Source: Deferrisomatales bacterium (lineage in GTDB: Bacteria > Desulfobacterota > Deferrisomatia > Deferrisomatales > JACRMM01). Taken from it: a stretch of 64,000 nt of DNA. The notes beneath the pieces are model-generated. The model was given only the letters and a program-made list of their open reading frames with translations, made no database searches and was not told the origin of the DNA. Position 1 is the first letter of the stretch, and each line of letters starts with the position of its first letter. The position numbers and the translations under genes are program-made. This document shows positions 1 through 43,542 of this stretch, piece after piece. Where the stretch lies: NCBI GenBank assembly GCA_033551855.1, contig JAWSUI010000006.1, forward strand, positions 43,189 through 107,188. The letters run 5' to 3'.

Positions 1-704
1 AGCAGCTTGAGCCGCGGGAAGTGCGTCCCGCCCCAGAGCGCCACCAGCAGCGCGACCGCCACGTGGGAGCTCGGGAAGGCGGCGCCCGGGTTCTCTCCCT
101 TCTCATAGATGAAATCCACGATCCTTTCGAACAGACCGCTCCCATGAAAAACCAATCCCCTCTCCGCAAGCGGCCCCTCCACGGGGAGAAAGACGTACAC
201 GGCATAGCAGAGGTAGAAGAGCGCCGAGAGCTGGAAGACGAAGCGCTGGAAGAGCCCCGGGCCCTTGCGAAAGAGCAGGAGCGAGACGAAAACGATCGCG
301 GGGTAGTAGCTCAAGTAGGCGAAGTGAAAGAGCTCGTCGGCAAAGGGTCCGCGGAGCGCTTGTTGGAGATAGACCGCGGGGAAGGCGCCGAACACGGCGA
401 CGTCGGCCCGGAGGAAGATGGGGTCCAGGAACTCCGGGACGAGGATACGGTTGAGAAGCCCGGTCTGATAGTAGAGGAAGGTGTACAGCATCAGGGGATG
501 CCACAGGGAAAGGAGGCGGTAGAACCGCTCCGTCGGCCGGGATCGGCGCATCCAGCCGGACCAGAGGACGATCGCGATCACACCGGCGTTGAACGCGGCG
601 TGCGCGGGCGCAGCGGCCACTCGCCCCCAGGATGCGAGCACGAAGGCGAGCACGAACAGGTTGTAGCCGACGGTGAGGGCGTCGGTCGCGACGGCTAGAT
701 CCAC
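1..704 (-). CDS. PAP2-superfamily integral membrane protein (PAP2_3 / Aur1 inositol-phosphorylceramide-synthase-like); 3' end lies outside the window
   Basis: Not in the ORF track. Manual translation from GTG at 704, overlapping the upstream stop: VDLAVATDALTVGYNLFVLAF...FHFAYLSYY...YVFLPVEGP...GAAFPSSHVAVALLV. Multiple hydrophobic helices, a PxxGP motif and the AFPSxH motif. Confidence 0.8.
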   Translation of the reverse strand, partial: MDLAVATDALTVGYNLFVLAFVLASWGRVAAAPAHAAFNAGVIAIVLWSGWMRRSRPTERFYRLLSLWHPLMLYTFLYYQTGLLNRILVPEFLDPIFLRADVAVFGAFPAVYLQQALRGPFADELFHFAYLSYYPAIVFVSLLLFRKGPGLFQRFVFQLSALFYLCYAVYVFLPVEGPLAERGLVFHGSGLFERIVDFIYEKGENPGAAFPSSHVAVALLVALWGGTHFPRLKL

Positions 705-1675
705 CCGTTCTCCCGGTACCAGCCGAAGGTGGCCCGAAAGCCGCTCTCCAGGTCGACACGAGGCGCGAAGCCGAGCTCCTCCCGGATCCTCTCGTTCGAG
801 CAAACCCATCCCTCCTGAAGCGCCTCCCGCGCCTTTTGACTGTTCAGAAGAACCCCCTTTCGGGTGACGGCCGCGGCCAGATCGCCCACGAGCCCGGCGA
901 GCCGCAGCGCCGCAGCAGGGATGGGCACGACGCGTGCGCGACCCGCGAGGTCCCGCAGAATGGCAACCACCTCGCCGCTCGTATGGCTCTCGCCGTCCGA
1001 AACGAAGTACACCCGACCATCGGAGCGCTCGGAGAAGGCTGCCAGGGTCAGCGCCTCCACCAGGTCGGCGACGTGGAGGAGGGAGAGCTCGAGGGTCCCG
1101 CCCCCGAGCAGCGGCACGAACCCCCGCGCCGCCGCGCGGAAGTAGGCATACACGTCTCGGTCGAAAGGCCCGTAGACCACCGCCGGACGCACGACGGCCC
1201 AGGCCACGGCGCCGCAGTGACGGCGCAGGAGTTCCTCGCCGAGGAGCTTGCTCTCGCCGTAGTGCGTGATGGGTCGCGCCGCCTCCTCCTCCCGGGCAGG
1301 GCGGGCCGCGCGGTGGGGTCCCGCTACCGCCAGGGAGCTCACGTAGACGATCTTCCTCACTCTCGAGCCCCGCGCCGCGGCCACCTCGGCGAGCCTGCCC
1401 GTCCCCTCCCCGTTGGTCTCCAGAAATGCGGCGCGCGTCCTTGCTTTCGTGAGGCCCGCGAGGTGGAATACGAGCTCCGACTTCCCGAGCACGGCGCGGT
1501 AGGAACCGGGGACGAGCAGATCCCCGGCCACGGGGGCGAGCCCGGGCCAATCCGCCATCCACCGCGCCTGCCCCGGCTCCCGGACGAGGCAGGAGACCCG
1601 GTGGCCGAGCTGCGACAGCCGCGAGACCAGGTTCCGGCCGATGAACCCGGCGCCGCCGGTGACGAAGATGTCCAT
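695..1675 (-). CDS. NAD-dependent epimerase/dehydratase family (extended SDR); possible 3-oxo-lipid/ceramide reductase
   Basis: TGGAGFIG Rossmann motif, VFHLAG, YVSS, catalytic YGESK (YxxxK), RPAVVYGP. Confidence 0.88.
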   Translation of the reverse strand: MDIFVTGGAGFIGRNLVSRLSQLGHRVSCLVREPGQARWMADWPGLAPVAGDLLVPGSYRAVLGKSELVFHLAGLTKARTRAAFLETNGEGTGRLAEVAAARGSRVRKIVYVSSLAVAGPHRAARPAREEEAARPITHYGESKLLGEELLRRHCGAVAWAVVRPAVVYGPFDRDVYAYFRAAARGFVPLLGGGTLELSLLHVADLVEALTLAAFSERSDGRVYFVSDGESHTSGEVVAILRDLAGRARVVPIPAAALRLAGLVGDLAAAVTRKGVLLNSQKAREALQEGWVCSNERIREELGFAPRVDLESGFRATFGWYRENGWI

Positions 1676-1684
1676 GGGTGACGT

Positions 1685-3037
1685 CTAGGTCTTCTCTGCT
1701 TCGTGGAACGCCCTGGAAAAGGGTTGCGGGTTCCGCAGGCCTTTGAAATAACGGCTGCGGGTCGACAGATTGACCCCGGCGTAGGCCTTGCAACCCAGCA
1801 AGGTCCGCCTCCACGGGGTCATGCCCAGGAACCGCTTGGCCATGGCACCCCAGGAATAGGTCTGTTTGTTCAAGTCGATGAATCCGGAAACCAGATCGTC
1901 CACGGTCATGCCCCTCGGACGAAAGAGAACGGTGTCCGGGGGGTATCCGTGGAGCCACCAGTCTTTGGAAAACAATCTGTCTTCCTCCAAGAGACGACGG
2001 TAGAGCCGGGTTCCAGGATAGGGGGTCAGAATTCGAAGCTGGACCACGTCCATGTGCGACTTCATGATGAACTCGAAGGTCCTGTCAAATACATCCTTGT
2101 TCTCGTAGTCGAACCCGAACACGAACGAGCCGAGTATGCCGAAGCCCTCCCCGTGAAATCGGCGCATCGCCTCGTAGAAGTCGATCTTCAAGTTGCGTAT
2201 CTTCCGCACCTCATCCTGGGTCGTCTTCTGTACCGACTCGAAGCCGACCAGGAGTCCCAGGCACCCGGAACGCTTCATCAAGCCGAGCAGTTCGAGATCC
2301 TCGGCCAACGACGCGGTTCCCTGCGCCAGCCACCGCCGCCGCAGCGGGATCATCTCCGTAAAGAGCTCCTTCGCGGCATTCCGGTTCAATCCAAGAGCAT
2401 CGTCCACGAAGAAGAGGTGGGGGGATTCCATGGACTGAATTTCCGCAATCGCCTCTTGTGTCGATCGGAGTCGATACTGGCTTCCCAGGGTCTGCCCGAT
2501 GCAGCAAAACTCGCAGTCATTCGGGCACCCCCTCGATGTTTCGACTCCCACCGGTACGGGAACACCTCCCTGACGTCTTGGCTTTGGCAGTAGGTCCCTC
2601 CGCGGTGTCGGCAGGCTCTGCAAACTGGTCATTTCGCCGGACCGATAGAGCTTCCGCATGCGGCCGGCCGCCGCATCCGCCACGAGATGTGCCCAGACAC
2701 CCTCCGCCTCACCGACGACGACAGCGTCTGCATGCGCCAAGGCCTCATCAGGCAGAACCGTGGGGTGTATGCCTCCCATCACCACCTTCACGCCCTTCGC
2801 GCGATAGTCGTCCCCGATCCGGTAGGCTCTGAGGGCGAGCTCGGTCAGGACGGTGATGCCGACCAAGTCCACCTCTTGATCCATGTCGTCGGGTGAAAAC
2901 GCTTCTTCCACGATCGTTATCGTGTGACCGGGCGGCGTAAGGGCCGCCAGGAGAGGAAGATTCACCCTCTGTAGCTGGAAGGGGCTGGAAATGGCGTCCT
3001 CACGGTGTTCATGTGGGGCGATCAGTTTGATCTTCAA
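1685..3037 (-). CDS. Cobalamin-binding-domain radical SAM protein
   Basis: N-terminal B12-binding-like domain (DLVGIT...VVMGGIHPT...VVVGEAE), SRGCPNDCEFC (CxxxCxxC), FFVDD, GFES, LTPYPGT. Start re-placed at TTG 3037 behind a GGAGGAG RBS. Confidence 0.9.
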   Translation of the reverse strand: MKIKLIAPHEHREDAISSPFQLQRVNLPLLAALTPPGHTITIVEEAFSPDDMDQEVDLVGITVLTELALRAYRIGDDYRAKGVKVVMGGIHPTVLPDEALAHADAVVVGEAEGVWAHLVADAAAGRMRKLYRSGEMTSLQSLPTPRRDLLPKPRRQGGVPVPVGVETSRGCPNDCEFCCIGQTLGSQYRLRSTQEAIAEIQSMESPHLFFVDDALGLNRNAAKELFTEMIPLRRRWLAQGTASLAEDLELLGLMKRSGCLGLLVGFESVQKTTQDEVRKIRNLKIDFYEAMRRFHGEGFGILGSFVFGFDYENKDVFDRTFEFIMKSHMDVVQLRILTPYPGTRLYRRLLEEDRLFSKDWWLHGYPPDTVLFRPRGMTVDDLVSGFIDLNKQTYSWGAMAKRFLGMTPWRRTLLGCKAYAGVNLSTRSRYFKGLRNPQPFSRAFHEAEKT

Positions 3038-3041
3038 AGAC

Positions 3042-4151
3042 TCACTCCTCCCATCGGGTGGCGATGATGCCCAGGATGAAGATTGCGCCCGCAAAGGCTC
3101 CGATGACCGCGGCGTCACGCAGCGCCGCCATGTTGTCCTCATATACCATCGATGCTCGCAGTCCCTCGTTCACGTAATACAGGGGCAGGAATTTCGCGAG
3201 CGTCGGGAGGAAGCCCGGCATCAGGTCGATGGGGAAGAAGCTCCCCGAGAGGAACATCATGGGAAAACTGATGGCGTTCGCCGCGGCAGCGGCGCTCTGC
3301 GCCTCCTTGACGAAACGGGTGAGGATCATGCCGATCCCGACGAACGCGAAGACGTTGAGCAAGACGAACCCAGGAAGCCAGGCGTTGATCCGCAGGTGGA
3401 CAGGAAACACGGCGTAGCTCACCAGCAGCATCGCCGTCGTGGAGAGGAGGGCGAGGAAGAAGTGGTAGAGGATGTCCGAAAGCAGCCACTCGCTGCGGGT
3501 GATGGGCGTCGTGCAGAGCTTGCGGATGATGCCCTTCTGTCGCAGTTCCGTGTTCAGATACACCGTGCCGAACAGGCTCAGGGTCATCACCGTCATCGCA
3601 ATGATGCCGGGAATGAAGAACTCCATGAACTGGTACTTCTTGGTGAGGATCGACTGCTCCACCGACTGGATGAAAGGCGGAGTCCCGGAGATTTCCAGGT
3701 TTGCTGCGGCCAGCAACCCGTTCAGTATCTTCATCTTCGTGGATACGGAGGGGGAGCCGGGATCGTATATGTAAGTGATCGCGACGGGTGCTTCAAAGTC
3801 TTTACTTTCCATCCTCTGCGTGAGGAGCACTTCGAAACCCTTCGGAATCACGAGGACGAGGTCGATCTTGTGGTCCGTGAGGTACTGCGCCGCGTCGACG
3901 GCCGGGTCGATCGTCGTGGTCTGGAACGTCCCCTTCTTGCCCAGGACCTCGATGGACTCTGCGGACGCCTTCGACTGGTCGAGGTCCTGCACGTAGAGGC
4001 GGAAGCTCACGTCGTCCTGGCCCGCGAAGATGGTGCCGAACACGAGGATCAGGATGATCGGGAACGCCGCCGTGTAGAGCAGGGTGGTCTTCTCGCGGTA
4101 GACGCTCATCAGTTTCACGTAGAGCGTTGCGCCGACGGCGCCCGGGTTCAT
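3042..4151 (-). CDS. ABC-2 type exporter permease
   Basis: N-terminal TM helix, extracytoplasmic domain, then FIPGIIAM, ELRQKGIIRKL..TP and MFLSGSFFPIDLMP motifs; follows the ABC ATPase. Confidence 0.9.
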   Translation of the reverse strand: MNPGAVGATLYVKLMSVYREKTTLLYTAAFPIILILVFGTIFAGQDDVSFRLYVQDLDQSKASAESIEVLGKKGTFQTTTIDPAVDAAQYLTDHKIDLVLVIPKGFEVLLTQRMESKDFEAPVAITYIYDPGSPSVSTKMKILNGLLAAANLEISGTPPFIQSVEQSILTKKYQFMEFFIPGIIAMTVMTLSLFGTVYLNTELRQKGIIRKLCTTPITRSEWLLSDILYHFFLALLSTTAMLLVSYAVFPVHLRINAWLPGFVLLNVFAFVGIGMILTRFVKEAQSAAAAANAISFPMMFLSGSFFPIDLMPGFLPTLAKFLPLYYVNEGLRASMVYEDNMAALRDAAVIGAFAGAIFILGIIATRWEE

Positions 4152-5110
4152 GCCGACCCCTCTTCCCCGACGCGGCGGTTGTGGAGCGTCTCTCCCGTGA
4201 GCTTCAGGAAGACCTCCTCGAGGTTTGGCTTTCGAACGTCCAAGCCAAGATACGACGCGCCGGCACCCTTCAGTGCTGCCAGAATCTGCTGCACGTCTTC
4301 CATGTGTTGGACCCTGACCTTGAGCCTATGGGTGTTGTCTGGAATCGGCTCGAAGCTGAGATCTCGCACGACGGCGCCGGCCCTCTCGTCCGTCGCTTGC
4401 AGGGTGAGGATCAGGTAGTTCGCATTAGCTTCGATGAGCTCCGCTGGAGAGCCCCTGGCAATGATCGTGCCGTTCGAGAGGATCGCCACCGTGTCCGCCA
4501 GGCTCTCCGCTTCCTCCATATAGTGCGTGGTGAGAAATACCGTTTTCCCCTTCTTCTTCAGGCCGAGCAGGACCTCCCACACGTCGCGCCTGGAGCGGGG
4601 GTCGAGCCCCGCGGTCGGCTCGTCGAGAAACACGACCTCGGGATCGTTCACGAGCGCGATGGCGATGCCGAGGCGCTGCTGCAAGCCGCCGGAGAGGTTC
4701 TTGTACTGTTCCTTGCTCTTGTGTCCGAGGTTCACCAGCGCGATCAGCCCGTCCACGTCGCCGTCGCCGCGCCGGAAGAGCCGCGAGTAGTACTGGACGG
4801 TCTCCCGGACCGTGAGCAGGTCGAACGACGTGAACCCCTGGGGGAGGACGCCGATGCGGGGGACGATGTCGTGCTTCCTCGAGACGTCCAGGCCCAGAAC
4901 GCGCACGCTCCCCGACGTGGGCCTGCGGATCGTGTCGAGGATCTCGACGGTCGTGGTCTTTCCTGCGCCATTCGGGCCCAGCAGGGCGAATACCTCGCCC
5001 TTCCTGACGGCGAACGAGACGTCGTTGACCGCTCGCAAGGCGCCGTAACGCTTCGTCAGTCTTTCGACTTCGATGGCGTTTTCCGTTTCTCGCACCCGGA
5101 ACGAGCTCAT
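4148..5110 (-). CDS. ABC exporter ATP-binding protein
   Basis: Walker A GPNGAGKTT, signature LSGG, Walker B VFLDEPTAGLD, H-loop TTH. Confidence 0.95.
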   Translation of the reverse strand: MSSFRVRETENAIEVERLTKRYGALRAVNDVSFAVRKGEVFALLGPNGAGKTTTVEILDTIRRPTSGSVRVLGLDVSRKHDIVPRIGVLPQGFTSFDLLTVRETVQYYSRLFRRGDGDVDGLIALVNLGHKSKEQYKNLSGGLQQRLGIAIALVNDPEVVFLDEPTAGLDPRSRRDVWEVLLGLKKKGKTVFLTTHYMEEAESLADTVAILSNGTIIARGSPAELIEANANYLILTLQATDERAGAVVRDLSFEPIPDNTHRLKVRVQHMEDVQQILAALKGAGASYLGLDVRKPNLEEVFLKLTGETLHNRRVGEEGSA

Positions 5111-6243
5111 TTCGAGGCTGCGTCGGGGGAGACGGGGGGACCGAGCCCGAGGGTTCGGAACATCTTCTCGACGACCGCCGGCTGTTCGAAGAGAAAACGG
5201 TCGAGCCCCGGCCGGCGGTGCTTGAGCAGGAGAAAGCTGGGGACGGGCTTGGCGCCCAGGTGCGCTTTGGTGTTCTGGGCGCCCTGGCCTGCATGGTAGA
5301 GGGGAATCTTGTGCTCTACGCAGTAGCGGATGTTCTCGAGCCAGGACAGGAAGTAGAGGTTGTGCTGCCGGCCGGCCGCATAGTCCATGCAGAAGTACTT
5401 ATCCACAAGCATTTCTTCCCTTGCAACGAGCAGATTGAAGGCGGCAAGCTCTTCCTGTACGAAATAGAGAGCGTACTCGGCCCCCGGAACCCTTTCACAG
5501 ATCTTCTCGAAGAACAGGCGGTTGAGCAGACCCGCTGCCATCGGGACGCGCTCCACCGTTGCCAGATAGAGTCCGTAGATTCTGTCGAGATATGGAGAAA
5601 TATCGCGGTTTCGCGTTACCGTGACCTCGGAAGAGGCGCGCATTTTGCGGCGAAGGTCTTTTCTGGCAGCGCTCGAAAGGAGTCCAAAGTAGTCCTCCAT
5701 GCTGTCGAAAGGAATCGGCAATTTGCCGCCGGGCACCCAGGGTAGTCGGTGGAACCCGCGCAACCCTTCCCCTGAGAGCTCGACCGTATGATTGAAGTTG
5801 TAGAACGTCACGAGGTCGCTCTTTCGTTCAGTGGCGAGCATTTGCAGCGAATCGAGCGCCAGTCTCCATGCCGCTGCGAGGGTTGTTGCATCCAAGGGAC
5901 GGGCAATTCCGATTTCGCTCCATCCCCCTTCCAGCAACCCAACGCCCAACACTCGCGGATGGAAGACCGAGGGAAAGAGTCGGACCGCCCCTCGGAGCGA
6001 CCTGCGCAGCCACCCCCCCGCGAGGGTGGATACATCGAGGCGGCACTCGAACAAGGGCAACAAGAGGATCGGGGCATCCCCCTGGAACACCACGATGCTC
6101 CGCAGGTGAAAACCGGGGACACCCGATTCTTGCAGGAGGGACAGGAGGGGGGCCGTGCTGGAAGGCGGCGGGAAGAGGCGCTCCAGCTCCTGCGCCGACA
6201 CCCCGTCCAACCGGGGCACGCACGTGCACGTGAGGTCGTTCAT
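5107..6243 (-). CDS. GNAT-fold (FemAB/DUF482-like) acyl/aminoacyl-transferase family protein
   Basis: Start re-placed at ATG 6243, overlapping the PPTase stop. Motifs PFDSMEDYFGLLSSAARKDLRRK, DKYFCMDY, HNLYF, YHAGQGA...KAHLG resemble Fem-like double GNATs. Confidence 0.75.
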   Translation of the reverse strand: MNDLTCTCVPRLDGVSAQELERLFPPPSSTAPLLSLLQESGVPGFHLRSIVVFQGDAPILLLPLFECRLDVSTLAGGWLRRSLRGAVRLFPSVFHPRVLGVGLLEGGWSEIGIARPLDATTLAAAWRLALDSLQMLATERKSDLVTFYNFNHTVELSGEGLRGFHRLPWVPGGKLPIPFDSMEDYFGLLSSAARKDLRRKMRASSEVTVTRNRDISPYLDRIYGLYLATVERVPMAAGLLNRLFFEKICERVPGAEYALYFVQEELAAFNLLVAREEMLVDKYFCMDYAAGRQHNLYFLSWLENIRYCVEHKIPLYHAGQGAQNTKAHLGAKPVPSFLLLKHRRPGLDRFLFEQPAVVEKMFRTLGLGPPVSPDAASK

Positions 6244-6995
6244 GCTTGCCGCAGCAAGAGGGCGAGGGAGAGCCACGTATTCCCCTTCGGGAACGCCCGT
6301 ACCGTTAGGGGCCGCTCGGCGGCCCGCGGGAGCCGACGGAGGGCCTTGCCGGACAGGTCGACGGGAAAAGCGTGCCCGGCGTCGTCTCCCACCCCCGGGG
6401 CAATGGTGATGTGCAGGGGATCCGCACCATGGAATCCGCACCCCAAGGCCTTGACGACGGCTTCCTTGATCGACCAGAGGAGCGCTGCGGCCCTTCCCAG
6501 GTCCCCACCCGCCGACCGCAAGGCATGGTGCAGCTCTTCGTCGTGGAAGACCCGGCGAAAGGGGTAGGTTCCGGGGAACTCGTCGCTTCCCGCGACGTCG
6601 ATGCCGACCTCGGCCCCTTCTGCGCAGAGAGCGGCCCAGAGCGAACCTGCGCCCTCGCTGAAGGAGATGCTCGAACCGTGCCCCTCTCCCGCCAGGAGAT
6701 GGGGCCTGCCCAGCGCGTCGTGCACGAGCTGAATCCCGGAAGGGTCGTCCCGGGAGGACCGGGCGCGCGGCTCCGGAGGATTCTCCCGCCCCCAAAGATG
6801 GGCCCAGAGGATGGTGGCGAGGCGGCGCTGGGCTTCCGCACGGCGGGTGGGTGGGGCGGTGGAACCGGGAGAGCCGGAGGAGTCCCCTGGCGCCGAGGCA
6901 AAGAAGACGGCGCCCGCCCCGGGAGCGAGCCGCACGGATCGAACCACGATCTCCTGGCGGACTGGTGCCGCGGCCTCCCGTTCGAACGGCGTCAA
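6240..6995 (-). CDS. 4'-phosphopantetheinyl transferase (Sfp/ACPS superfamily)
   Basis: TTG at 6995 overlaps the PKS TGA (TTGA). Motifs HDALGRP, ISFS, VGIDVA, WSIKEAVVKALG.G. Confidence 0.85.
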   Translation of the reverse strand: MTPFEREAAAPVRQEIVVRSVRLAPGAGAVFFASAPGDSSGSPGSTAPPTRRAEAQRRLATILWAHLWGRENPPEPRARSSRDDPSGIQLVHDALGRPHLLAGEGHGSSISFSEGAGSLWAALCAEGAEVGIDVAGSDEFPGTYPFRRVFHDEELHHALRSAGGDLGRAAALLWSIKEAVVKALGCGFHGADPLHITIAPGVGDDAGHAFPVDLSGKALRRLPRAAERPLTVRAFPKGNTWLSLALLLRQA

Positions 6996-9900: not shown

Positions 9901-12900
9901 CCGGTCTCTCGGGAGAGACGTGCTGCCGGGCTTCGAACACACCGGGCCCCCCGGGGGGGGGTCCGATCGTGGGGCCCTGTCTGCCTGCAGAGTGGGAAAC
10001 GAGCCTCGGTTCCCGTGGAACCTCCAGGTGCCCTCGAGCGAAGAGCCGGGCAAGGGCGGTCCGGTAGGTCGGGGCCTCTGCGGCGGGAAGGCACGTCTGG
10101 ATGCATTCCGGTTCCGCAAGCGTGTCGGTGATGAGGTCGCTCAGGGTATCGCCGGGGCCCACTTCCACGAAGAGCCGGACTCCGTAATCGTTCCAGAGGG
10201 CCCGGACGTTGCTCATCCAGTGGACGGTGGACTCCAGGTGGGCCATGAGAATGCGCCGGATCTCGGTGGGATCGGATGGATAGGGCGCCATGGTCGTGTT
10301 GGAGAGGACGGGAATCTGCGGGGCATGAAAGGGGATGGAGGAAACGTAGGCCTCGAGCTCCTCGTGGATGACCCGCATGATGGGGGAGTGGAAGGCCATG
10401 CTGACCCGCAGGAGGGTAAAACGGTATCCCCCCTCCTTCAGTTCCACGCCCAGAGCCCGGATGGCGTCGGTCTTGCCGCTCAGGACGACCTGTCGGGGTG
10501 CGTTGATATTGCCGATGTGGACGTCGCTCCGGCCCCGGAGCATCTCCTGCAGCAGCTCCAGGGGGGCGTCCGTGGCCGCCATGACCCCGGGGTCCCCGTG
10601 CAGGGCACCGGCCTTGTCCATGCAGATGGCCCGCTTGTTCACGATCCGAAAGCCGTCCTCCACGCAATAGACGCCGGCCAGGCACAGGGCGGTCAGCTCG
10701 CCCAGGCTGTGGCCGGCCATGGCCACGGGGCGAACGCCGAGGGCGAGGAGGTGTCGCGCCAGGGCGTGCTCCACGGCGAAGAGGGCGGGTTGTTGCCACC
10801 GGGTCTCTTGCAGGTCCCCCTCGCGATCGCGGAACAGGAGGTCGAGGAGGTCGAAGTCCGCGGCCGCTGCCGCCCGATCCATCCACTCCCGGATGACGGA
10901 AGAGGACTCGTAGAGGTCCCGCCCCATTCCCGCGTACTGTGACCCCTGCCCCGGAAACACCAGGGCGAGCGGCAAGGCCGGAGCGTCGTCGCGGCCTAGG
11001 AAGATCCCCTGCCGGGCCAGGGACCGCGCCGCCTTGGGTGAAGCGACGGCGGCTTCGGCAAGGGCGGCGGGGCTCCCGATGGCGGAGAGCGCGTCCTCTT
11101 CGGATGGCGCCACGACCCCAATCCGGAAGTTGCGACCGCCCAGCTGGTCCCGCAAGAAGGAAACACCCGGGAGCACGGAACGGCCGCCCGTCCCCTCCGT
11201 GAGATTCGGGCTGCTGCCGGGTGAGACCAGGATCGTCCCCGCCGGATCCAGGTCCTCTTCCACCTGCACGACGTAGTTGGAACCCCCGAACCCGAAGGCG
11301 TTGACCTGAAGCCTCCGGGGCCGGCCGTCCCTGCGCTTCCAGTCGAGCGGCTCCCGGGGGAGGAGGAGCCCGGAGCCTTCCAGGGCGATGTCCGGGTCCG
11401 GGTGCTCGTAGTTGAGGGTGGGCGGAAAGACCCCCGCGTTCATCGCGCTGACGCCCCGAATGAGGCTGTTGAGGCCCGAGGCGCCCAGGGTGTGTCCGAT
11501 CTGGGATTTGAACGAGGAGATCACGGTGCGCCGGGAGGAGGGGAAGAAGGTCTTGAGGGCGCGGATCTCCTCCACGTCCCCCTGCCGGGTGCTCGTCCCG
11601 TGGCATTCCACCAGGTCCACGGCGTCGGGCCCATAGGGCGTGTCGCGAAACGAGGTGCGCATGGCGAGGGCCTGGGTGGCGCTGGAGGACTCCACCATCC
11701 CGCGGTGGTTGTTGCTCGCTCCCAGGCCGGTAATCACCACGTGGACCGGCGCCCCTCGCGCGCGCGCCACGCTTTCCCGCTCGATGACGATCATGCCCCC
11801 GCCCTCGCCGAGGACCATCCCGTCTCTCTCGGCATCGAACGGCCGGGAGGCCTCCCGGGGGGGTCTCTCCCGCCCCGACAGCCCGTACAGCGCACCCAGG
11901 GCGGAAAACTCCAGGAAATGCAGGTGGGTGAGGGGTTCCTCGCCGCCCCCGACGATCGCCGCGTCGATGATGCCGTTTCGGATCATCTGGACGGCGCTGT
12001 GGAGTGCGACCAGCGAGGTGGCGCAGGCGGCGGAGACGGAGTAGCTGGGCCCCATGAACCCGTACCGGTTGCAGACGAAGCCGCCCGCTGCGCAGTTGAG
12101 TCTGCCCAGCAGGGTGGTGTCGTCCGGAGCCATGCGCCCGGACTTCACCTGCCGTTCGATGGCCCTCAACTGCTCCGGCGTGAGGGGAACGGCCTTCCGG
12201 ATGTCGGCGAGGATGTCGTGAACGTACGCCCGGATGTGCAGGTCGGTGAGGGGACCCGCCGCCTCTCCCGAGTTCTGGGAGATGAGGACTCCGATGCGCT
12301 CGCGGGGGATGCCCGACTCCAGGATGCCCGACGCCCGGATGGCCCCGTCCGCCAGCCACAGGGTGAGCCTGGTGGCTTCGGTCATGGTCCGGAAGTCGTG
12401 GGGAGGGATGCCGAGCCCGTTGCGGGAGACCCGGAAGTCCACGAAGGCCCCCACCTTGCAGTAGGTCTTGTCCGGGGCGTAAGGCTGGGGATCGTAGAAG
12501 CGTTCGTGATCCCACCGCGAAGGCGGAACCGGCGTGATCCCGCTTTGCAGAGCGAGGCTTGCCGCCCACACCTCTTCGGGGCTCTTCCCCAGGGCATTGA
12601 CGAGGCTCATCCCGGTGACGACGACCCGTTCGCGATCGCCCCGGGTGGGGGCGCCCCCCCCTTGCGATGTCCAGTGGCCGACCGCGGGGGATGGAACGCC
12701 TCTCGATCGCGAGGCGTCGGGGGGAGGTTCCGAGAGGCCCGCGTTGGACCCCAGGAACGGCTGGTGCAGCACGAGCGGGCTTTCGGCCAGCTCGCGGTGA
12801 AACGACTCCAGATCCCGGGCCTCTCGGAGGAGGCCGGCGCAGGCCCCGCTCAGGAAGCGCCCGCGCTCCAGGCAGGCCTCCTCATCCAGGGGTGTCCCCC

Positions 12901-14797
12901 CCGGCCGGTCCAGGCCCCGGGCCGCGGTGAAGAGGCTCCCCGCCGTCATCTCCTCGGTCTGGGTCCGGAAGGAACGCTCGTCTTGGCGGCCTGCTGCAAA
13001 CTCCCTCTCCAGGGACAAAATGGCAGCGACGCGCGGAGTCCCCAAAGATCGCACCCGAAGCCCGGTGGCCTGGCCCGAGACGACGGTTCCCCCGAGGGGC
13101 GACTCCAGGATCAGTCGCTGATAGAGCGCGGTCAACGCGCCGGTCTCGATCATCTCCCGGCTGGTGAGATAGGCGGTGCCCATCTGGACGGCGTCGGCGC
13201 CGAGCATGGCGGCGATGAAGGCGGTCTCCCGGTTGAAGATCCCTCCTGCGAGGATCACGCGGCAGCCTTGGAACAGGGATGGCTTGCGCCGCTTCAGCTC
13301 CAGCACCATCTGAGCGAGGGTGAGGGTGCTGTGTGGCCCCACGTGGCCGCCCGCCTCGTAGCCCTCGCAGACCACCCACCGGACGCCCGCCTCGAGGGCC
13401 AGCGTCAACAGCGCCTCGTCGGGAGCGATGTACACGACCGCCAGACCGAGCTCGAGCAGCTCCTTGACGGGGGAGAGGTCACCGCCCGCGACCCAGACGA
13501 GACGGGGCCTGTGTTTCTTGATCCAGGCCAGGTGCGTCTCCCGGCAACGGTTCTCTGCCAGGGCGATGACATTCACGGCGTAAGGGCGCCCTTCCATGGC
13601 CTCCTGCAGCCGTCCGAGCCTCCGGTCCAGGGCCTCCTCGTCCATCAGGCCCAGGGCGATGGTGGGCAGTCCACCGGCAGCGGCAACCCTTGCGGCCAGC
13701 TCGGGGACATCGGTGATGGACGCCATGGCGCCCTGGATGAAGGGGTACCTGGTTCCCAGCTCCCTGGCGACGGGGCTGCGCAAGAAACCATCCCTCTTGG
13801 CGTCAGCCAAGCGGCAGCAAGACCGAATCTCTTCGATGAAGGCCCCTACGGCCCCCTCGGTTCCAGACCCGAAACGCTCCACGAACGACGCCGCAAAGGC
13901 AGCCTCCACCGCCAGTGGGATGACCTCGTCCGGGGCGAAACGGCTCTCCAGGGGGTGAACGGCCCTGCCGTGTACCTGACTCGAGAACGACCGCCGGCTT
14001 TCCTCCGTGACCCCTGCCCTGCACAGCGAGCTCTCGAGCGCCCTGAGCTCCTGGAACGCCAAGGAGTTCCCCTTGTTGAACAGGCGCCAGGGCGTTCGCA
14101 GCTCCAGCCCCACCAGCTCCGTGGAGTCCAACCGGAGGTTGGCGAGCTGCCGGCGCTGGTGCGAATCCACCGCAACCAGGTCCGTCAGCCAGTGGACGCT
14201 CTCGAAGACGATTCCGGCAGCCCCCGTGGACAGGAAGGCCGCGGCCGCCTCAGGAGTGGAGACGCCTCCCCACACAAGGATGTCCGGCACGTTCGAGGAG
14301 CTGCCCCGCATCTCCTTGGCCGCGGAATAGAGCGTCAAGGTCGTCTCGGCACCGACCAACCCAGAGGCCTCGCAACCCTTCAGGACGACGCGCTCGATGC
14401 TTGGGTGATCGTTGATGATGTCCGCCAGGAGAGCCGCGTCACCGATAATCGGGAAGCAATGGCGGCTCGCCGACAACTCCTCCCATCTCCGAAAAACGCT
14501 GGAAGGGTCTCCGGCAAACAGGGATGGGTGAAGCTCCACCCAAATGTTCTTGACCCCGGTTCCCTCGAGGGCCTGGTGCAACGATGGGTCAAGAAACGTA
14601 GTGGCAGAAATCTTGACGTCGAGAACCTTGTCGGAGGAGTCCGATGTTCGAAACAAAGAACATAGCGCGTCGACAGCCATCGTAGAGCAGTCAAATACTG
14701 CCCTGCTTCCTGTTCTTCGGGCCATTTCGATCACCTCTTGCGTGATCTCTTTTGGCCTCCAGACGAAACTGATGAAAGAATCAAAGTGCTGGGCCAC
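6992..14797 (-). CDS. Iterative type I PKS/FAS-like megasynthase: degenerate FabK/NPD barrel - FabK/NPD FMN enoyl-reductase - KS - AT - ACP - KR - DH; no TE
   Basis: FabK motifs PFIQGAM, EGYEAGGH, AGGI, GADAVQMGT; KS triad SAACATS, ECHGTST, KSQIGH; AT FPGQGSQY, GHSLGE, MAFHS; ACP ATGY...DLSIRSSR; KR GGASGIG, GQTNYAAAN; C-terminal DH LADHRP...P and LLEALMQ. Confidence 0.93.
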   Translation of the reverse strand: MAQHFDSFISFVWRPKEITQEVIEMARRTGSRAVFDCSTMAVDALCSLFRTSDSSDKVLDVKISATTFLDPSLHQALEGTGVKNIWVELHPSLFAGDPSSVFRRWEELSASRHCFPIIGDAALLADIINDHPSIERVVLKGCEASGLVGAETTLTLYSAAKEMRGSSSNVPDILVWGGVSTPEAAAAFLSTGAAGIVFESVHWLTDLVAVDSHQRRQLANLRLDSTELVGLELRTPWRLFNKGNSLAFQELRALESSLCRAGVTEESRRSFSSQVHGRAVHPLESRFAPDEVIPLAVEAAFAASFVERFGSGTEGAVGAFIEEIRSCCRLADAKRDGFLRSPVARELGTRYPFIQGAMASITDVPELAARVAAAGGLPTIALGLMDEEALDRRLGRLQEAMEGRPYAVNVIALAENRCRETHLAWIKKHRPRLVWVAGGDLSPVKELLELGLAVVYIAPDEALLTLALEAGVRWVVCEGYEAGGHVGPHSTLTLAQMVLELKRRKPSLFQGCRVILAGGIFNRETAFIAAMLGADAVQMGTAYLTSREMIETGALTALYQRLILESPLGGTVVSGQATGLRVRSLGTPRVAAILSLEREFAAGRQDERSFRTQTEEMTAGSLFTAARGLDRPGGTPLDEEACLERGRFLSGACAGLLREARDLESFHRELAESPLVLHQPFLGSNAGLSEPPPDASRSRGVPSPAVGHWTSQGGGAPTRGDRERVVVTGMSLVNALGKSPEEVWAASLALQSGITPVPPSRWDHERFYDPQPYAPDKTYCKVGAFVDFRVSRNGLGIPPHDFRTMTEATRLTLWLADGAIRASGILESGIPRERIGVLISQNSGEAAGPLTDLHIRAYVHDILADIRKAVPLTPEQLRAIERQVKSGRMAPDDTTLLGRLNCAAGGFVCNRYGFMGPSYSVSAACATSLVALHSAVQMIRNGIIDAAIVGGGEEPLTHLHFLEFSALGALYGLSGRERPPREASRPFDAERDGMVLGEGGGMIVIERESVARARGAPVHVVITGLGASNNHRGMVESSSATQALAMRTSFRDTPYGPDAVDLVECHGTSTRQGDVEEIRALKTFFPSSRRTVISSFKSQIGHTLGASGLNSLIRGVSAMNAGVFPPTLNYEHPDPDIALEGSGLLLPREPLDWKRRDGRPRRLQVNAFGFGGSNYVVQVEEDLDPAGTILVSPGSSPNLTEGTGGRSVLPGVSFLRDQLGGRNFRIGVVAPSEEDALSAIGSPAALAEAAVASPKAARSLARQGIFLGRDDAPALPLALVFPGQGSQYAGMGRDLYESSSVIREWMDRAAAAADFDLLDLLFRDREGDLQETRWQQPALFAVEHALARHLLALGVRPVAMAGHSLGELTALCLAGVYCVEDGFRIVNKRAICMDKAGALHGDPGVMAATDAPLELLQEMLRGRSDVHIGNINAPRQVVLSGKTDAIRALGVELKEGGYRFTLLRVSMAFHSPIMRVIHEELEAYVSSIPFHAPQIPVLSNTTMAPYPSDPTEIRRILMAHLESTVHWMSNVRALWNDYGVRLFVEVGPGDTLSDLITDTLAEPECIQTCLPAAEAPTYRTALARLFARGHLEVPREPRLVSHSAGRQGPTIGPPPGGPGVFEARQHVSPERPAAPPLDVAPAIPEPAAPLPAEAPEAQGLMERLIRIIMDATGYTREEIQPEMDLRRDLSIRSSRLPIIMDAAERLFGITIELEDFIEVRTVQDIADRISEIIGRQGGPGEGPAARAADPGAAPGAVPEPGPEEGDRANGVEDACLKRCVFTLAPVEPAASAPLALSPGDAVVLLSPDREDALARSADELLRKGTGVETVPLPYLPEHGGPGEEGPDLRTAAGVARLSERIAGLASRAGLVITLPRGRPQGLADMAEVARLLAGLFQLVQAFLQPPARKFVVLIHDTREEPDTPGRLLAEGLLGLFLSAAQEQPSTQFRTLEVDRDTDLPPALRAALDRGCPAVELVHREGGLLTSRAQAVPAVFGGAPSLELSPGDVVILSGGASGIGARLARGLAPFAPRLVLLGRTPPGPGPGPRPLESRPGSSSPPSAPEGSHAREIAQTLADLRASGIEATYLTCDVTDPEAVRAALGEVVERFGRIDGIIHGAGVLRDGLLADLTPEELSLVADVKFLGAWNLFTAAAGAGLRFFVGLSSVAAIQGNPGQTNYAAANRMMSALLPYLRAKNPAIHFKALMLPPIEGTGMAEDPEVRHALRRRGVAYIHVQELVALFCRELFVAPAEDVRVLFLRALPAVKAAPLGDFGRPPLRGRLDGGPVALSDRDFPLIDGISRLDLRRGHLEATRTFFDAHDLWLADHRPLKSLAHPLVSAAMMVETFLEAARILYPHLPVRGVRQVRFLDTISCPAGVSRPARISCRRVGAEPGAVVCEVSLSAQELSPTGRLPTRRLDERFTPYCTGQVVLGGGPAELAEWLQDFPVRPEELRTPPVPHGELLQWYERRTGLQGRYRVLEVLDGAGPRTVRGRTVYRETGDFAQLPAACYQYSPYLLEALMQLAGFHGPAMDPQDRRSMLPVGIGEMRFPRLCRPGEPITLEARLRAPAEDSLTWDARGVDAQGHTLMQVRTLRLQRASP

Positions 14798-14896
14798 TAG
14801 GTCACAACTCCAATGAGAAAGCGGTCATTGTCCAGTTGACGACGATGCGCCAGTTGGTTCCGTGCCACCCGATTCGGCGGGCCAACATTACGCGGG

Positions 14897-15742
14897 TCAC
14901 TTCTTCAAAGCAAGATACCATTCGGTCGCATCGCTCCCGATGCCAAGCTCGACAAGGTGGCGCAGGTCCGTTTCCAGAACCTCGGGAGTGCTGTACTCCA
15001 GAATGCGGTATTTCGGATCCGTCCAGACGCGCCGCCTCTGACCCCAGATGCTCACTTCCCGCGGCCCGGTGAGGCGAATGCGGTGGATCAGGTGGATTCC
15101 GGCCAGCGCCGCAACTTCGATCACCATATCGGTGCAGTTGTTGGCCGTCACGCCGAACTGGTCGTACTTCCTTTGCATCACGTATTCATGGATCCGTTGA
15201 TGCCGCCGTCGGGTGATCGGCATGCGCCAGACGAACGTGGGGGGACGATTGGGCCTGCCGGTCTGGAACGTGCCGTCGGACCTCGTCTGCCACAGGTACG
15301 CGATCGCATCGGGATGGCCCTCGCGGGTTCGCTGGAACACACCATCATGGTACCGCGGCCCAACGAGCCCCAGGTCGCCGGTGTGGCCGAACTCCCAGCG
15401 ATTCTCGGGACTCTCCAAGATGAGCCAGCTATGCCCCCAGGGACGCTGCCAGATGGAGAAGAGCAGCGACCGCGTCGTGCTGTAGTCCCAACGGGCAGCT
15501 TCGTTCAGGACATGCAGGAAATACCCCTCGTCTCCGACCGGTGTGTATGTGGCGGGGTCCAGGTCGGCATCGGCGGTGAAACGGCGCACGATTCCGATCG
15601 GCTGGGCACTGTAGCCATCGGGTTGCATCGGAGCGAAGAGCCTGGGGGTTCCGCCGGCACATCGGAGGGCAACCCCCGCCAGCCATCTCATCGCTGCTTG
15701 GACAGGCCCTCGATACCCTTCTTTGCTCGCCGTTTTCGTCAT
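14897..15742 (-). CDS. Hypothetical protein with permuted papain-like His...Cys motifs
   Basis: 281-aa ORF with ATGA overlap to the upstream gene; WGHSW and YDQFGVTANNCTD motifs. Confidence 0.65.
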   Translation of the reverse strand: MTKTASKEGYRGPVQAAMRWLAGVALRCAGGTPRLFAPMQPDGYSAQPIGIVRRFTADADLDPATYTPVGDEGYFLHVLNEAARWDYSTTRSLLFSIWQRPWGHSWLILESPENRWEFGHTGDLGLVGPRYHDGVFQRTREGHPDAIAYLWQTRSDGTFQTGRPNRPPTFVWRMPITRRRHQRIHEYVMQRKYDQFGVTANNCTDMVIEVAALAGIHLIHRIRLTGPREVSIWGQRRRVWTDPKYRILEYSTPEVLETDLRHLVELGIGSDATEWYLALKK

Positions 15743-16860
15743 AGGGTTTTTCTGAAGATTCTATACTTCTTGTGTGGTCTTGCACCCGTTTCCTCGATCA
15801 AGGAGTTGATCGACTCGTTGTCCTCCAGGGTCCAGCCCATCTCCAGCTTTTCAAACTTCTTCTTTTCCCTGGCAATTTCATAGATGTGCCGGAAAGCCAA
15901 TATGGGAAACCCCAGTTGACGGTACTTCTCCTTGACCCCAAACATCAGCAACCTCAACCCGTTGATTTCCCGCCGGTAGAGGAGTGCCTTTGCAATGCCC
16001 AGCAGGCCGATCCGGCCGTTGAGGCGTTTGAGCAAGGGGTTGATGTCGGGAAAGATCACGCAGACCGCCGCTGGTTCCTCTTCATGGTGGATGAAGAACA
16101 CGAGATCCGGGTCCGCGAAGGGCTTCACGCTCTTCTGGATGTCCTTCATTTCGCGATCGCTCAAAGGGACAAAACCCCAATTCCCGGACCAGGACTCATT
16201 GTATATTTCCCGGATCAGGCCGAATTCTGCATCCCGATTCTCCGGGTCTACCTGCCGGATACGGACACCCTTCTTGTTGGCGACCTTTTCAGCAAGACGC
16301 TCCATCCAATCCGGCAGCCGGTACTCTCCTTCTATTTTGAAGGCCAACAGATCCTTTTCTTTGGTGAAACCGTAGGATTCGGCCAGCCGTTGGTAATACG
16401 GCGGGTTGTACGCCATCATCACGGCAGGCGGAACTTCGAAACCTTCGATGAGCAAGCCCGCTTCGTAATTCAACGAAGGGCTGAGCGGACCCCTCAGGAA
16501 CGTCATCCCCTTCTGCCGCGCCCAGGTCTCCACGGAAGAGTAGAGGGCCGCCGCGACCTCCGGGTCGTCCGTGCACTCGAAGAAACCCCAGATGGCCATC
16601 TTCTCGTCGTGGCACTCGTTCGAGCGACGGTCGATGATGCCGGCGATCCTTCCCACCGTCTTCGATCCGCGCCGGGCCAGAAAGAGGATGCGCTCGGAAA
16701 ACTCCCAGAAAGGGTGTGCATCGGGGGTCAACAGGCGGCGAACCTCTTTCCTTAGGGGGGGGACCCAATGGGGGAAGTCGGCATAGATCTTCCAAGGAAG
16801 GTCGATGAAGGCCTGCCAGTCCGATCGGGAGTCGACAGGAAGAATCTCTACGCCGGCCAT
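15739..16860 (-). CDS. GNAT-family acyl-CoA N-acyltransferase, bacterial ceramide synthase (bCerS)/YghO-like
   Basis: Start re-placed at ATG 16860. FIDLPWKIY..PHWVPPL, HPFW, VGRIAGI, GFFEC.DD, RGP.SPS.N.E.GLLIEGF, MAYNPPYY, WSGNWGFVP, PDIN, EMGWTLEDN are hallmarks of this family. Confidence 0.85.
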   Translation of the reverse strand: MAGVEILPVDSRSDWQAFIDLPWKIYADFPHWVPPLRKEVRRLLTPDAHPFWEFSERILFLARRGSKTVGRIAGIIDRRSNECHDEKMAIWGFFECTDDPEVAAALYSSVETWARQKGMTFLRGPLSPSLNYEAGLLIEGFEVPPAVMMAYNPPYYQRLAESYGFTKEKDLLAFKIEGEYRLPDWMERLAEKVANKKGVRIRQVDPENRDAEFGLIREIYNESWSGNWGFVPLSDREMKDIQKSVKPFADPDLVFFIHHEEEPAAVCVIFPDINPLLKRLNGRIGLLGIAKALLYRREINGLRLLMFGVKEKYRQLGFPILAFRHIYEIAREKKKFEKLEMGWTLEDNESINSLIEETGARPHKKYRIFRKTL

Positions 16861-17385: not shown

Positions 17386-17570
17386 CACTCTCCCTAGCAG
17401 GGCAAGCCGGCGGTGGTGAGCCCTCCACGGGGCGCGCGGGGCGGAGAAAGGGTGGTGACCAGGGGATGGTTCGATGGAGAGCTTCACGATGGAGTGGAAC
17501 CGTGGATATCCGGAGAGGGTGGTTTTCTGGGCGGCTTCCGACGGAACGGCAGACGCGAAGGGAGGACACT

Positions 17571-17750
17571 ATGAAGTCGAGCATTCGCGACAAGACCGAG
17601 GGTACGTTTCACGAGGCGAAGGGGAAGGTGAAGGAGAAGACCGGGGAGCTCATTGACAACCCCGAGCTCGAGGCCGAAGGCACTGCGGAGAAGGTCGCAG
17701 GGAAGATCCAAAAGAAGGTCGGTGACGTCAAGGAGGATCTTGGGAAATAG
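17571..17750 (+). CDS. csbD: CsbD family general stress protein
   Basis: MKSSIRDKTEG...KGKVKEKTGEL.DNPELEAEG.AEK.AGKIQKKVG; GGAGG RBS. Confidence 0.92.
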   Translation: MKSSIRDKTEGTFHEAKGKVKEKTGELIDNPELEAEGTAEKVAGKIQKKVGDVKEDLGK

Positions 17751-17892
17751 GTGAAGCGCTACTTCTGCAAGTTGCCATTTTGTGTGGGCCGGCATTGCAG
17801 GCAACTGGGGGTGGCGAAGCTGGTAGCAGAGTGAGTTTCCGTGCACGCAGGGCGGAACAAGACAAGAAACCACAGAATTGAGGAATCGAGCC

Positions 17893-24833: not shown

Positions 24834-24844
24834 CACTCTCACCC

Positions 24845-25363: not shown

Positions 25364-25375
25364 GACACCCCCTTC

Positions 25376-26824: not shown

Positions 26825-26851
26825 GTCCTCCCTTGATGTGTACCTGGCGGC

Positions 26852-28642: not shown

Positions 28643-28750
28643 GAGAAACCACGTTCTTCCACCTGGTGAGCACACAAGAGCGGCGGCCGCCTGGGGGTTG
28701 GAAGCCCTACTGCGAACCCGAGCTAGCCACCGTGTGATGTGACCCGCCTG

Positions 28751-33323: not shown

Positions 33324-33432
33324 CCCGGCCCCTCTCGATCAACTGGAAGATGAAGTTCCCGCGAGATACGACCGGGCCCACGGCACCCCGGAGCAAGGGC
33401 CGGGTCTCGGCGCCGCAACAAGGGGGCGAACC

Positions 33433-34728: not shown

Positions 34729-34854
34729 GATGTCACCGGGGAACCAACGCAGGCGCCGGGATTGCGATTTCGCAGACCCAGGCTAGCATTGCGTGGGCGC
34801 AAACCACCGGGGGACTGCTCCAGCGTGTTTCGCCCCGCCCCAAAGATTTGGTGG

Positions 34855-34870
34855 TGGTTTCTGTATTGCA
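34855..34870 (+). promoter_or_regulatory. Putative sigma-54 promoter upstream of cheBR
   Basis: TGGTTTCTGTATTGCA; a second GG-N10-GC candidate AGGCGCCGGGATTGCG at 34751-34766. Confidence 0.4.
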
Positions 34871-43538: not shown

Positions 43539-43542
43539 CGCG

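Follow-up and report, generated by a model that had tools for sequence, protein, structure and literature searches.

A candidate ceramide-type lipid gene cluster with its own polyketide synthase in a Deferrisomatales bacterium, and its conservation among uncultured bacteria

Bacterial sphingolipids were thought to be rare before the genes for serine palmitoyltransferase (Spt), the bacterial ceramide synthase (bCerS), and the reductase CerR were defined. They are now predicted in dozens of phyla, and many of them occur in anoxic waters with no known producer or pathway (PMC11334938). Among the closest described pathways is that of AasR, AcpR, Spt, CerR, and CerS, encoded in Caulobacter by CC_1165 (aasR), CC_1163 (acpR), CC_1162 (spt), CC_1164 (cerR), and CC_1154 (cerS), with counterparts in E. 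coli BL21(DE3) at ECD_02851 (aasR), ECD_02853 (acpR), ECD_02854 (spt), ECD_02852 (epi/cerR), and ECD_02850 (yghO) (PMC9386255); the gene names also rest on PMC11324152. It is the legend to Fig. 9 of PMC9386255 that gives yghO as the counterpart of the Caulobacter ceramide synthase CC_1154. In 2025, an iterative polyketide synthase (PKS), SgaA, and a serine palmitoyltransferase, SgaB, were reported to lead to C24-C28 sphinganines and phosphoglycerol sphingolipids in Pseudomonas fluorescens MYb115, and SgaAB was described as the first PKS cluster for which a part in making sphingolipids had been demonstrated (PMC12134224). Here, we describe a gene cluster in which a type I PKS lies among candidate ceramide genes. 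It was found in a stretch of 64,000 nucleotides (nt) from a Deferrisomatales bacterium (contig JAWSUI010000006.1, positions 43,189 to 107,188; G000:C6:43189-107188 in our numbering), hereafter referred to as the window.

The host assembly comprises 4.24 Mb in 132 contigs and is 100% complete, with 4.16% contamination, as judged by marker genes. The initial annotation of the window, made from its letters alone, had recognised ten co-directional genes with mostly overlapping or near-abutting start and stop codons at positions 1-16860, and had read them as a PKS-fed ceramide-type lipid cluster. Inspection of the open reading frames (ORFs) and their junctions, together with Pfam and NCBIfam searches (the source of all domain calls below), confirmed this layout, with each of the ten predicted genes on the minus strand, and the domain searches agreed with the annotated gene list of a PKS lacking a thioesterase (TE), a 4′-phosphopantetheinyl transferase (PPTase), a Fem-like protein, a pair of ATP-binding cassette (ABC) transporter genes, a B12-binding radical S-adenosylmethionine enzyme (rSAM), a short-chain dehydrogenase/reductase (SDR), and a PAP2_3 protein. 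It had also been suggested that an Spt or other α-oxoamine synthase (AOS) gene might lie beyond the left edge. Such a gene was indeed found leftward, fused to a fatty acyl-AMP ligase (FAAL) and an acyl carrier protein (ACP), and with this FAAL-ACP-AOS gene the operon-like cluster is one of 11 genes and ~21 kb. Each computational check proposed with the initial annotation spoke for the ceramide-type interpretation, which is supported at the level of homology. In our judgement the likeliest function of the cluster is to build an envelope lipid of ceramide type (sphingolipid-like) by way of two carrier-protein arms and to export it, a reading in which we place somewhat better than even confidence; we infer all activities from gene presence, homology, and conserved linkage.

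Among the ceramide-type homologies, the gene furthest upstream, GNAT1 (15739..16860, minus strand), encodes a 373-amino-acid (aa) ceramide-synthase-like N-acyltransferase of the YghO/CC_1154 family with a putative GCN5-related N-acetyltransferase (GNAT) fold. The named references in these comparisons were the E. coli BL21 proteins, standing in for those of Caulobacter. GNAT1 is 33% identical to YghO over 373/380 aa (E 7e-72), and it is the sole match when YghO is searched across the whole genome. It has no Pfam or NCBIfam match at E <= 0.01 and no detectable similarity to the Fem-like protein of the cluster. Its homologues, like those of the Fem-like protein, are conserved to an unusual degree, at 73-97% identity across taxa among the best 120 of 2492 matches. 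A tree of 17 GNAT sequences groups the GNAT1 proteins associated with a PKS in a tight, long-stemmed clade (100/100), whose sister group is made up of the GNATs of the SDR-Spt-GNAT triads described below; YghO, the only named member, is 31-38% identical to all of the GNATs in the tree, and its placement is weakly supported (63/18). The association with spt and cerR expected of a ceramide synthase is found as well, in that GNAT1 shares its cluster with an AOS and a CerR-like SDR.

The latter is an extended SDR of 326 aa (695..1675, minus strand; Epimerase domain, 1.1e-31) and a candidate 3-keto reductase. It is 29% identical over 317 aa to ECD_02852, the E. coli BL21 counterpart of CerR (E 6e-33), and it is the best match of ECD_02852 in the genome at 110 bits, versus 63 bits for the next gene. 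Its specificity is assigned with moderate confidence, because the NCBIfam matches (HpnA and OleD) all fall below their cut-offs. The fusion gene (L001:14175-17552, or about -637 to -4014 in window terms, on the same strand as the rest of the cluster) encodes 1125 aa with AMP-binding (1.1e-70), PP-binding (5.6e-13), and Aminotran_1_2 (PF00155; 1.3e-44) domains in Pfam, and NCBIfam identifies the N-terminal part as a fatty acyl-AMP ligase. The FAAL domain is 36% identical to AasR over 559 aa (E 6e-83), and the AOS domain is 34% identical to E. coli Spt over 350 aa (E 2e-55), with the GT(L/F)SKSLAS lysine motif aligned. By sequence, the protein belongs to the α-oxoamine synthase family and appears to unite AasR, AcpR, and an Spt-like synthase in a single polypeptide. 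The fused AOS is the sole match of E. coli Spt in the genome, which holds no other oxoamine synthase at E <= 1e-5; AasR matches a gene on contig C2 (321 bits) besides the fusion (263 bits). All five ceramide functions thus have homologues in the cluster, at 29-36% identity and E-values of 6e-33 to 6e-83, and the cluster is, as far as homology can tell, the only ceramide-type gene set of the genome. Relatives of the fusion are abundant in metagenomes, where AOS domains 76-97% identical to that of the window genome carry the labels Deferrisomatales, Lentisphaerae, and Sedimentisphaerales.

The initial annotation had named co-occurrence of the genes in other genomes as a check. We scanned one genome per species with an alignment of the Fem-like protein, which yielded 80 loci with 10-kb flanks. 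The counted set comprises 64 loci (L003-L066), in which the Fem-like protein is 53-85% identical to that of the window; 16 others (L067-L082), with a Fem relative of 28-35% identity in a different context, were excluded. Genes were counted by tblastn, with those loci that have enough flank as denominators. The core order of GNAT, His/Cys protein, PKS, PPTase, Fem-like protein, ABC, ABC, and rSAM recurs in dozens of genomes with ~10 phylum labels, and since the order is identical, the arrangement is not due to chance. The PPTase is present in 51/58 loci, the ACP-KR-DH part of the PKS (KR, ketoreductase; DH, dehydratase) in 46/51, and its ketosynthase (KS) and acyltransferase (AT) domains, upstream of Fem, in 33/37, whilst its enoylreductase (ER) and its N-terminal domain were each detected in 30 of 35. 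A His/Cys gene lies upstream in 25/35 loci and anywhere in the locus in 37/64. The ABC ATPase and the ABC-2 permease are each present in 51 of 56 loci, and the rSAM lies downstream in 30 of 46.

The phylum labels are Thermodesulfobacteriota, Nitrospirota, Methylomirabilota/Rokubacteria, Verrucomicrobiota, Planctomycetota, Chloroflexota, Actinomycetota, Bacteroidota, Binatia, and Acidobacteriota. As nearly all records are metagenome-assembled genomes (MAGs) or otherwise uncultured, some of these labels may reflect mis-binning; no title among the 80 records is clearly that of a cultured isolate. Peat, soil, groundwater, and sediment are the sources of the >50 MAGs, counted at species level, in which the cluster is conserved. 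Of 301 genomes sampled from the phylum of the window, 3 (G000 counted) have the Fem gene, which was seen in neither of the two other genomes of the same family nor any of the seven of the same order. A cassette this rare, patchy, and highly conserved suggests horizontal spread. Base composition gives no clear signal of recent transfer, with a GC content of 0.56-0.71 for each cluster gene versus 0.696 for the genome, and high GC3 values of 0.74-0.89.

Linkage of the core to sphingoid genes takes three arrangements. In the window genome and in L003 (85-91% identical), SDR, PAP2, and FAAL-ACP-AOS genes directly follow the rSAM. In L008, L027, L028, L034, L063, and L066, a convergent set of KS, ACP, PAP2_3, Spt-like, and SDR genes lies a few kb downstream, its Spt-like gene scoring 551 bits on an Spt model with a cut-off of 640. 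In a Geobacter MAG (L083), GNAT1-HisCys-PKS has SDR and Spt-like genes immediately upstream of it. A 361-aa ORF beside the Spt cluster of L028 was considered as a ceramide synthase and set aside; it has no similarity to GNAT1 or Fem and is probably spurious. Overall, an AOS is encoded in the flanks of 14 of the 64 loci (6 fused, 8 free). Five core genomes without an AOS in the flanks were checked whole, and four of these have an Spt-like gene elsewhere (556-590 bits); at the same stringency, the background is 49/301 genomes of the phylum. In one of these 49 (G251), a single contig carries both Fem and Spt, at a distance of ~6 kb. In G002 and G003, the Spt-like gene is part of an SDR-Spt-GNAT triad, and the GNAT of this triad shares 36-43% identity with GNAT1; the loci L084 and L085 have such triads with GNAT1 paralogues.

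Some loci lack the PKS. Of these, L006, L013, L018, and L064 keep Fem, His/Cys, and FAAL-ACP-AOS genes, with a GNAT1 paralogue in L006, L018, and L064, whilst L016 keeps Fem and His/Cys with no AOS seen in the locus. The SDR is retained in L006 and L018, and the ABC genes in L006, L018, and L064. In L018, the place of the PKS is taken by separate genes for a KS, two reductases of SDR type, an ACP, and a dehydratase resembling FabA. Comparison of the PKS-bearing (window genome, L003, and L021) and PKS-less versions with a fused AOS points to a second carrier-protein arm in each. The fused AOS domains of L013 and L018, loci of MAGs labelled Propionibacteriaceae and Limnocylindria, are nearly identical (tree branch lengths 0.045 and 0.037), which reflects either mis-binning or recent transfer.

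The PKS (6992..14797, minus strand; 2601 aa) is, by its Pfam domains, an iterative type I PKS/FAS-like megasynthase with an NMO/FabK-like ER (aa 348-595), KS (723-1131), AT (1280-1568), ACP (1662-1729), KR (2009-2196), and PS-DH (2471-2600), and with no TE match in the Pfam search. The N-terminal 345 aa appear to form a second, degenerate FabK-like domain (FabK 2z6i, E 0.012; NMO, E 0.028; overall range 0.012-0.03), and both hot-dog halves of the DH are present. NCBIfam gives PKS_plus_SDR and PfaA as the best matches, each scoring far short of its cut-off (PfaA TIGR02813, 421 bits against 1010, which does not qualify the protein as a PfaA); FabK scores 128 bits. Because it consists of one iterative module that has the complete reducing set, the PKS is predicted to make a fatty-acid-like product. 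The adjoining PPTase gene (6240..6995, minus strand) matches PF01648 (ACPS) at 3.8e-11.

Between GNAT1 and the PKS lies a gene (14897..15742, minus strand) for a 281-aa protein that we call the His/Cys protein after its conserved residues: H104, H120, C203, and D205 are invariant in 25 sequences. It matches nothing in Pfam or NCBIfam at E <= 0.01, and a PDB profile search with its alignment was empty. A LAGC-type lipobox is present in most relatives. A structure model (mean pLDDT 68.8) returned no Foldseek match at E <= 0.001. VIA-align, which alone gave a coherent set of matches, ranked at the top TseH (Z 8.8), YiiX (6.2), the Bacillus cysteine peptidase 3kw0 (5.7), the DUF862 deSUMOylase (5.2), the RID acyltransferase domain of MARTX (5.2), Aichivirus 2A, CLN5 (4.0), and PLAAT4 (3.6). 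Eight of the nine top matches we take to be members of the permuted papain-like superfamily, several of them acting on lipids. The His/Cys protein is probably a permuted papain-like enzyme (NlpC/P60-LRAT-PPPDE type), with a lipoprotein-like N-terminus in most relatives. A second copy (55-58% identical) lies on the opposite strand a few kb downstream in some genomes (L017:18228-19046, L031:18424-19269, and L047:15244-16131, all minus).

The FemAB-like/BioF2-like protein (5107..6243, minus strand; 378 aa), with a predicted GNAT fold, matches PF04339 over residues 181-339 only (30.7 bits against a cut-off of 27; E 2.4e-07). Homologues 63-85% identical to it occur in many taxa among the best 120 of 677 matches, many with PF04339 or PF13480. 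A PDB profile search with its alignment was empty, and its structure model was poor (mean pLDDT 45.9) and was not used for fold comparison.

The transporter pair consists of a DrrA/NodI-like ATPase (4148..5110, minus strand; PF00005, 1.7e-29; TIGR01188 drrA, 257 bits, below its cut-off) and an ABC-2 type permease (3042..4151, minus strand; PF12698, 1.3e-35). The rSAM (1685..3037, minus strand) combines B12-binding, Radical_SAM, and DUF4070 domains in one protein; its NCBIfam matches (HpnJ, BchE, and TIGR04072) are far below their cut-offs, and no curated family was matched. The window holds a second B12-binding radical SAM gene (39424-41199, plus strand), 31% identical to that of the cluster, after a run of sensor kinases at 32055-39427.

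The 5′ part of the PAP2_3 membrane protein gene occupies 1..702 on the minus strand (PAP2_3, 8.3e-13 within the window and 1e-21 for the whole gene, which scores 78 bits on PF14378 against a cut-off of 27). Its PSSH and HYxxD motifs are invariant in 8 sequences, as are S224, H226, H265, and D269, and sequence places the protein, its His-His-Asp motif intact, in the PAP2 phosphotransferase/phosphatase family. An EptA-like membrane protein of the Sulfatase family (~590 aa) is encoded between the permease and the rSAM in 21 related loci (L004, L012, L014, L015, L019, L020, L027, L031, L042 [L042:6821-8599], L044, L048, L055, L056, L058, L059, L065, and others). Its best family matches are phosphoethanolamine transferases (76 bits, far below the cut-off). 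The EptA-like gene is missing from the window genome and PAP2 went undetected in most of these 21 loci; PAP2_3 may do the corresponding job in the window genome.

The junctions of the cluster are tight. ATGA overlaps join GNAT to His/Cys, PPTase to Fem, Fem to ABC, and ABC to permease. The PKS and PPTase overlap at TTGA, the TTG start of the PPTase overlapping the PKS stop. The ORF of the rSAM is open up to an ATG at 3142, and its start is likely the TTG at 3037, 5 nt past the permease stop. A gap of 9 nt separates rSAM and SDR, one of 99 nt His/Cys and PKS, and the GTG start of PAP2 overlaps the SDR stop. The contig extends 43 kb to the left of the window, where PAP2 runs on for 144 nt and the AOS gene begins ~640 nt beyond the edge, after a spacer of ~490 nt. 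A 163-aa ORF in this spacer was treated as non-coding, since it has no Pfam or NCBIfam match and no tblastn match even in L003. On the far side, a PAS and sigma-54 activator gene (L001:12423-14171, plus strand) is convergent with the FAAL-ACP-AOS gene, from which we conclude that the cluster ends there; L023, L024, and L061 have homologues of this activator near the cluster. A sigma-54 promoter consensus has 4 one-mismatch matches in the window versus 3.96 expected, none of them upstream of the cluster.

On the pathway that we favour, the FAAL-ACP-AOS fusion would, from its homology, activate a free fatty acid, hold the chain on its own carrier domain, and condense the fatty acyl group with an amino acid to a 3-keto long-chain base. 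In the other arm, the TE-less, PfaA/PfaD-like PKS (KS-AT-ACP-KR-DH-ER), activated by the PPTase, would assemble a fatty acyl chain bound to its ACP; from there the CerS-like GNAT would move this chain onto the amine of the base, and the CerR-like SDR would reduce the 3-keto group. More speculatively, PAP2_3 (or in many relatives the EptA-like protein in its place) may add a phospho head group, the His/Cys and Fem-like proteins may attach or remodel an additional acyl or aminoacyl group, the B12 rSAM may modify the lipid tail, most likely by methylation, and the ABC-2 pair may carry the lipid across the inner membrane.

Several observations weigh against this account. The fused AOS domain falls below the NCBIfam cut-offs for both BioF (346 versus 426) and Spt (NF047600; 294.5 versus 640), and a tree of 24 sequences puts the seven fused AOS domains in a clade of their own (100/100), outside both the Spt clade (E. 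coli Spt and free-standing Spt-like genes; 100/99) and the BioF/Kbl group, so that the amino-acid substrate is not fixed as serine. The distinct, long-stemmed clade of GNAT1 could mean that its acceptor differs from that of characterised ceramide synthases, the family scores of the PKS and rSAM are all far below curated cut-offs, and the PKS ACP is a putative acyl donor. For the His/Cys protein, the fold matches are middling (Z 3.6-8.8 on a model of pLDDT 68.8), and in the window's protein an Arg, rather than Gly/Ala/Ser, precedes the conserved Cys, which makes lipoprotein processing uncertain. In one of the five core genomes checked whole, possibly an incomplete assembly, no Spt-like gene was found. 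Of the 64 core loci, 50 have no AOS within the flanks examined. This last observation is also what one would expect if the core made a non-sphingoid N-acyl amino lipid or lipo-amino acid, with SDR, PAP2, and AOS as mere neighbours. The SDR/PAP2/AOS part does vary between genomes in position and strand, the GNAT1 clade is separate from the triad-associated GNATs, and Fem-family proteins typically use amino-acid donors. On the other hand, the sole named relative of GNAT1 is the counterpart of a ceramide synthase, the AOS/SDR linkage recurs in three independent arrangements as well as in PKS-less variants, Spt-like genes were found in 4 of 5 core genomes against a phylum background of 49/301, and the rSAM-SDR-PAP2 junctions abut or overlap in the window genome. 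We consider an N-acyl amino lipid a rather doubtful product.

A different division of labour, in which the PKS feeds the long-chain base as in SgaAB, either directly or by release and re-activation through the FAAL, and GNAT1 acylates the resulting very-long-chain sphingoid base from acyl-CoA, has the published precedent of SgaA/SgaB (PMC12134224) behind it. It would also suit L083, where GNAT1-HisCys-PKS has just upstream of it a free-standing Spt that lacks both an ACP and a FAAL, and a myxobacterial relative of the fused AOS (48% identical) that is joined to KS and ACP domains. However, an AOS fused to its own loading enzyme and carrier has no need of the PKS, and the PKS has no TE to free an acid for the FAAL. 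G002 and G003, moreover, carry a separate triad besides a core that has a GNAT paralogue to itself, a combination easier to reconcile with an additional N-acyl donor than with an additional base, and the PKS-less variants retain a second ACP besides the fused one. We prefer an N-acyl role for the PKS because of these fused loading and carrier domains, the missing TE, and the co-inherited GNAT paralogue, and regard a base-feeding PKS, the main rival, as unlikely, though it deserves to be kept in mind. As for an ordinary secondary-metabolite cluster making a polyketide antibiotic or surfactant, with the exporter conferring self-resistance, the type I PKS, the PPTase, the DrrA/DrrB-like ABC-2 pair, and the patchy occurrence in the phylum (3/301 genomes) would all be at home there. 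The PKS is, however, a single iterative, fully reducing module with a fatty-acid-like product, the proteins are 60-80% identical over ~10 phylum labels in a fixed gene order, and their companions (CerS-like GNAT, CerR-like SDR, PAP2_3, and EptA-like protein) are membrane-lipid enzymes; we give such a cluster very little credence.

Other genes of the window lie outside the cluster. Divergent from it is a gene for a three-BON-domain protein (17878-18648, plus strand), with a small ORF ahead of it that by eye looks CsbD-like (~17570-17760, plus strand). BON homologues are found near the cluster in L015, L017, L024, and L065, and the protein may be a periplasmic lipid-binding partner or a coincidence. 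Further along, 24279-28675 (minus strand) encodes a Sulf_transp membrane protein, a metallo-beta-lactamase-rhodanese fusion, and a CitMHS-family transporter, which look sulfur-related and unrelated to the lipid cluster. A 2872-aa ORF (43474-52092, plus strand) with glucoamylase, GH94 supersandwich, and GH94 catalytic domains has the look of a cyclic beta-1,2-glucan synthase, and another glucoamylase-domain gene lies at 60099-61433 (minus strand).

If the ceramide-type reading is right, the cluster would add a dedicated megasynthase arm and a PKS-specific ceramide-synthase paralogue to bacterial sphingolipid synthesis, and would present the three starting enzymes in one-protein form. It would further supply candidate genes for export (ABC-2), head-group addition (PAP2_3/EptA-like), further acylation, and oxygen-independent tail modification, steps that are still poorly known in bacteria. 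Either for heterologous expression or for pairing orphan environmental lipids with genes, it is a concrete target. A bolder picture, which we offer as a long shot, is of a horizontally spread cassette that would equip uncultured anaerobes from many phyla with a multi-acylated, phospho- or phosphoethanolamine-decorated ceramide serving as a lipid-A-like outer-membrane anchor. Its N-acyl chain would come from the dedicated PfaA/PfaD-type PKS via the PKS-specific ceramide-synthase paralogue, a third chain or amino acid from the periplasmic LRAT-like lipoprotein or the Fem-like enzyme, and the methyl group of its tail, without oxygen, from the B12 rSAM.

Set against the AasR-AcpR-Spt-CerR-CerS pathway of Caulobacter and E. 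coli BL21, the cluster shares all five functions by homology. Unlike in those bacteria, the ligase, carrier, and synthase are fused in one 1125-aa protein whose synthase domain lies outside the Spt clade, and the GNAT represents a distinct, PKS-associated subclade. The LptF/G-type and Cpg-type genes that adjoin the Caulobacter and E. coli ceramide genes are absent from the cluster, which adds to their set the PKS, PPTase, Fem-like and His/Cys proteins, ABC-2 exporter, B12-rSAM, and PAP2_3. The last of these, compared by description with the Aur1/sphingomyelin-synthase type of PAP2 head-group transferases, shares the PAP2_3 domain, Ser-His and His-Tyr-x-x-Asp motifs, and ceramide-gene neighbours. 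The PKS resembles PfaA/PfaD in its KS-AT-ACP-KR-DH order and in the FabK/PfaD (NMO) type of its ER, but differs in having that ER fused N-terminally, behind the degenerate FabK-like domain, and in its single ACP. In contrast to polyunsaturated fatty acid synthases, the cluster has neither a PfaC-type KS/chain-length factor nor FabA-type dehydratases, and hence no evident route to cis double bonds.

The initial annotation knew of no described pathway with this combination of genes. That view no longer holds for the general idea, given the PKS-derived sphingolipid route of SgaA/SgaB/SgaC published in 2025 (PMC12134224), and stands for the gene content, which differs. Searches of open-access papers and bioRxiv preprints turned up the canonical pathway papers and the SgaAB paper, and among the papers found none reports a cluster of PKS, CerS-like GNAT, Fem-like protein, ABC-2 exporter, and B12-rSAM or a FAAL-ACP-AOS fusion. 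As judged by gene content, both systems couple an iterative type I PKS genetically to an α-oxoamine synthase and a reductase. The Sga system has a two-gene core and a eukaryote-like KDSR, and the part of the paper drawn on here mentions no bCerS-type GNAT in the cluster (PMC12134224). In the present cluster, by contrast, the AOS comes with its own FAAL and ACP, the reductase is CerR-like, six further genes are conserved, and two genes upstream of the PKS, separated from it by the His/Cys gene alone, comes a conserved CerS-like GNAT. The coupling of a PKS to sphingolipid synthesis is thus already known, whilst the architecture of the cluster described here appears to be new.

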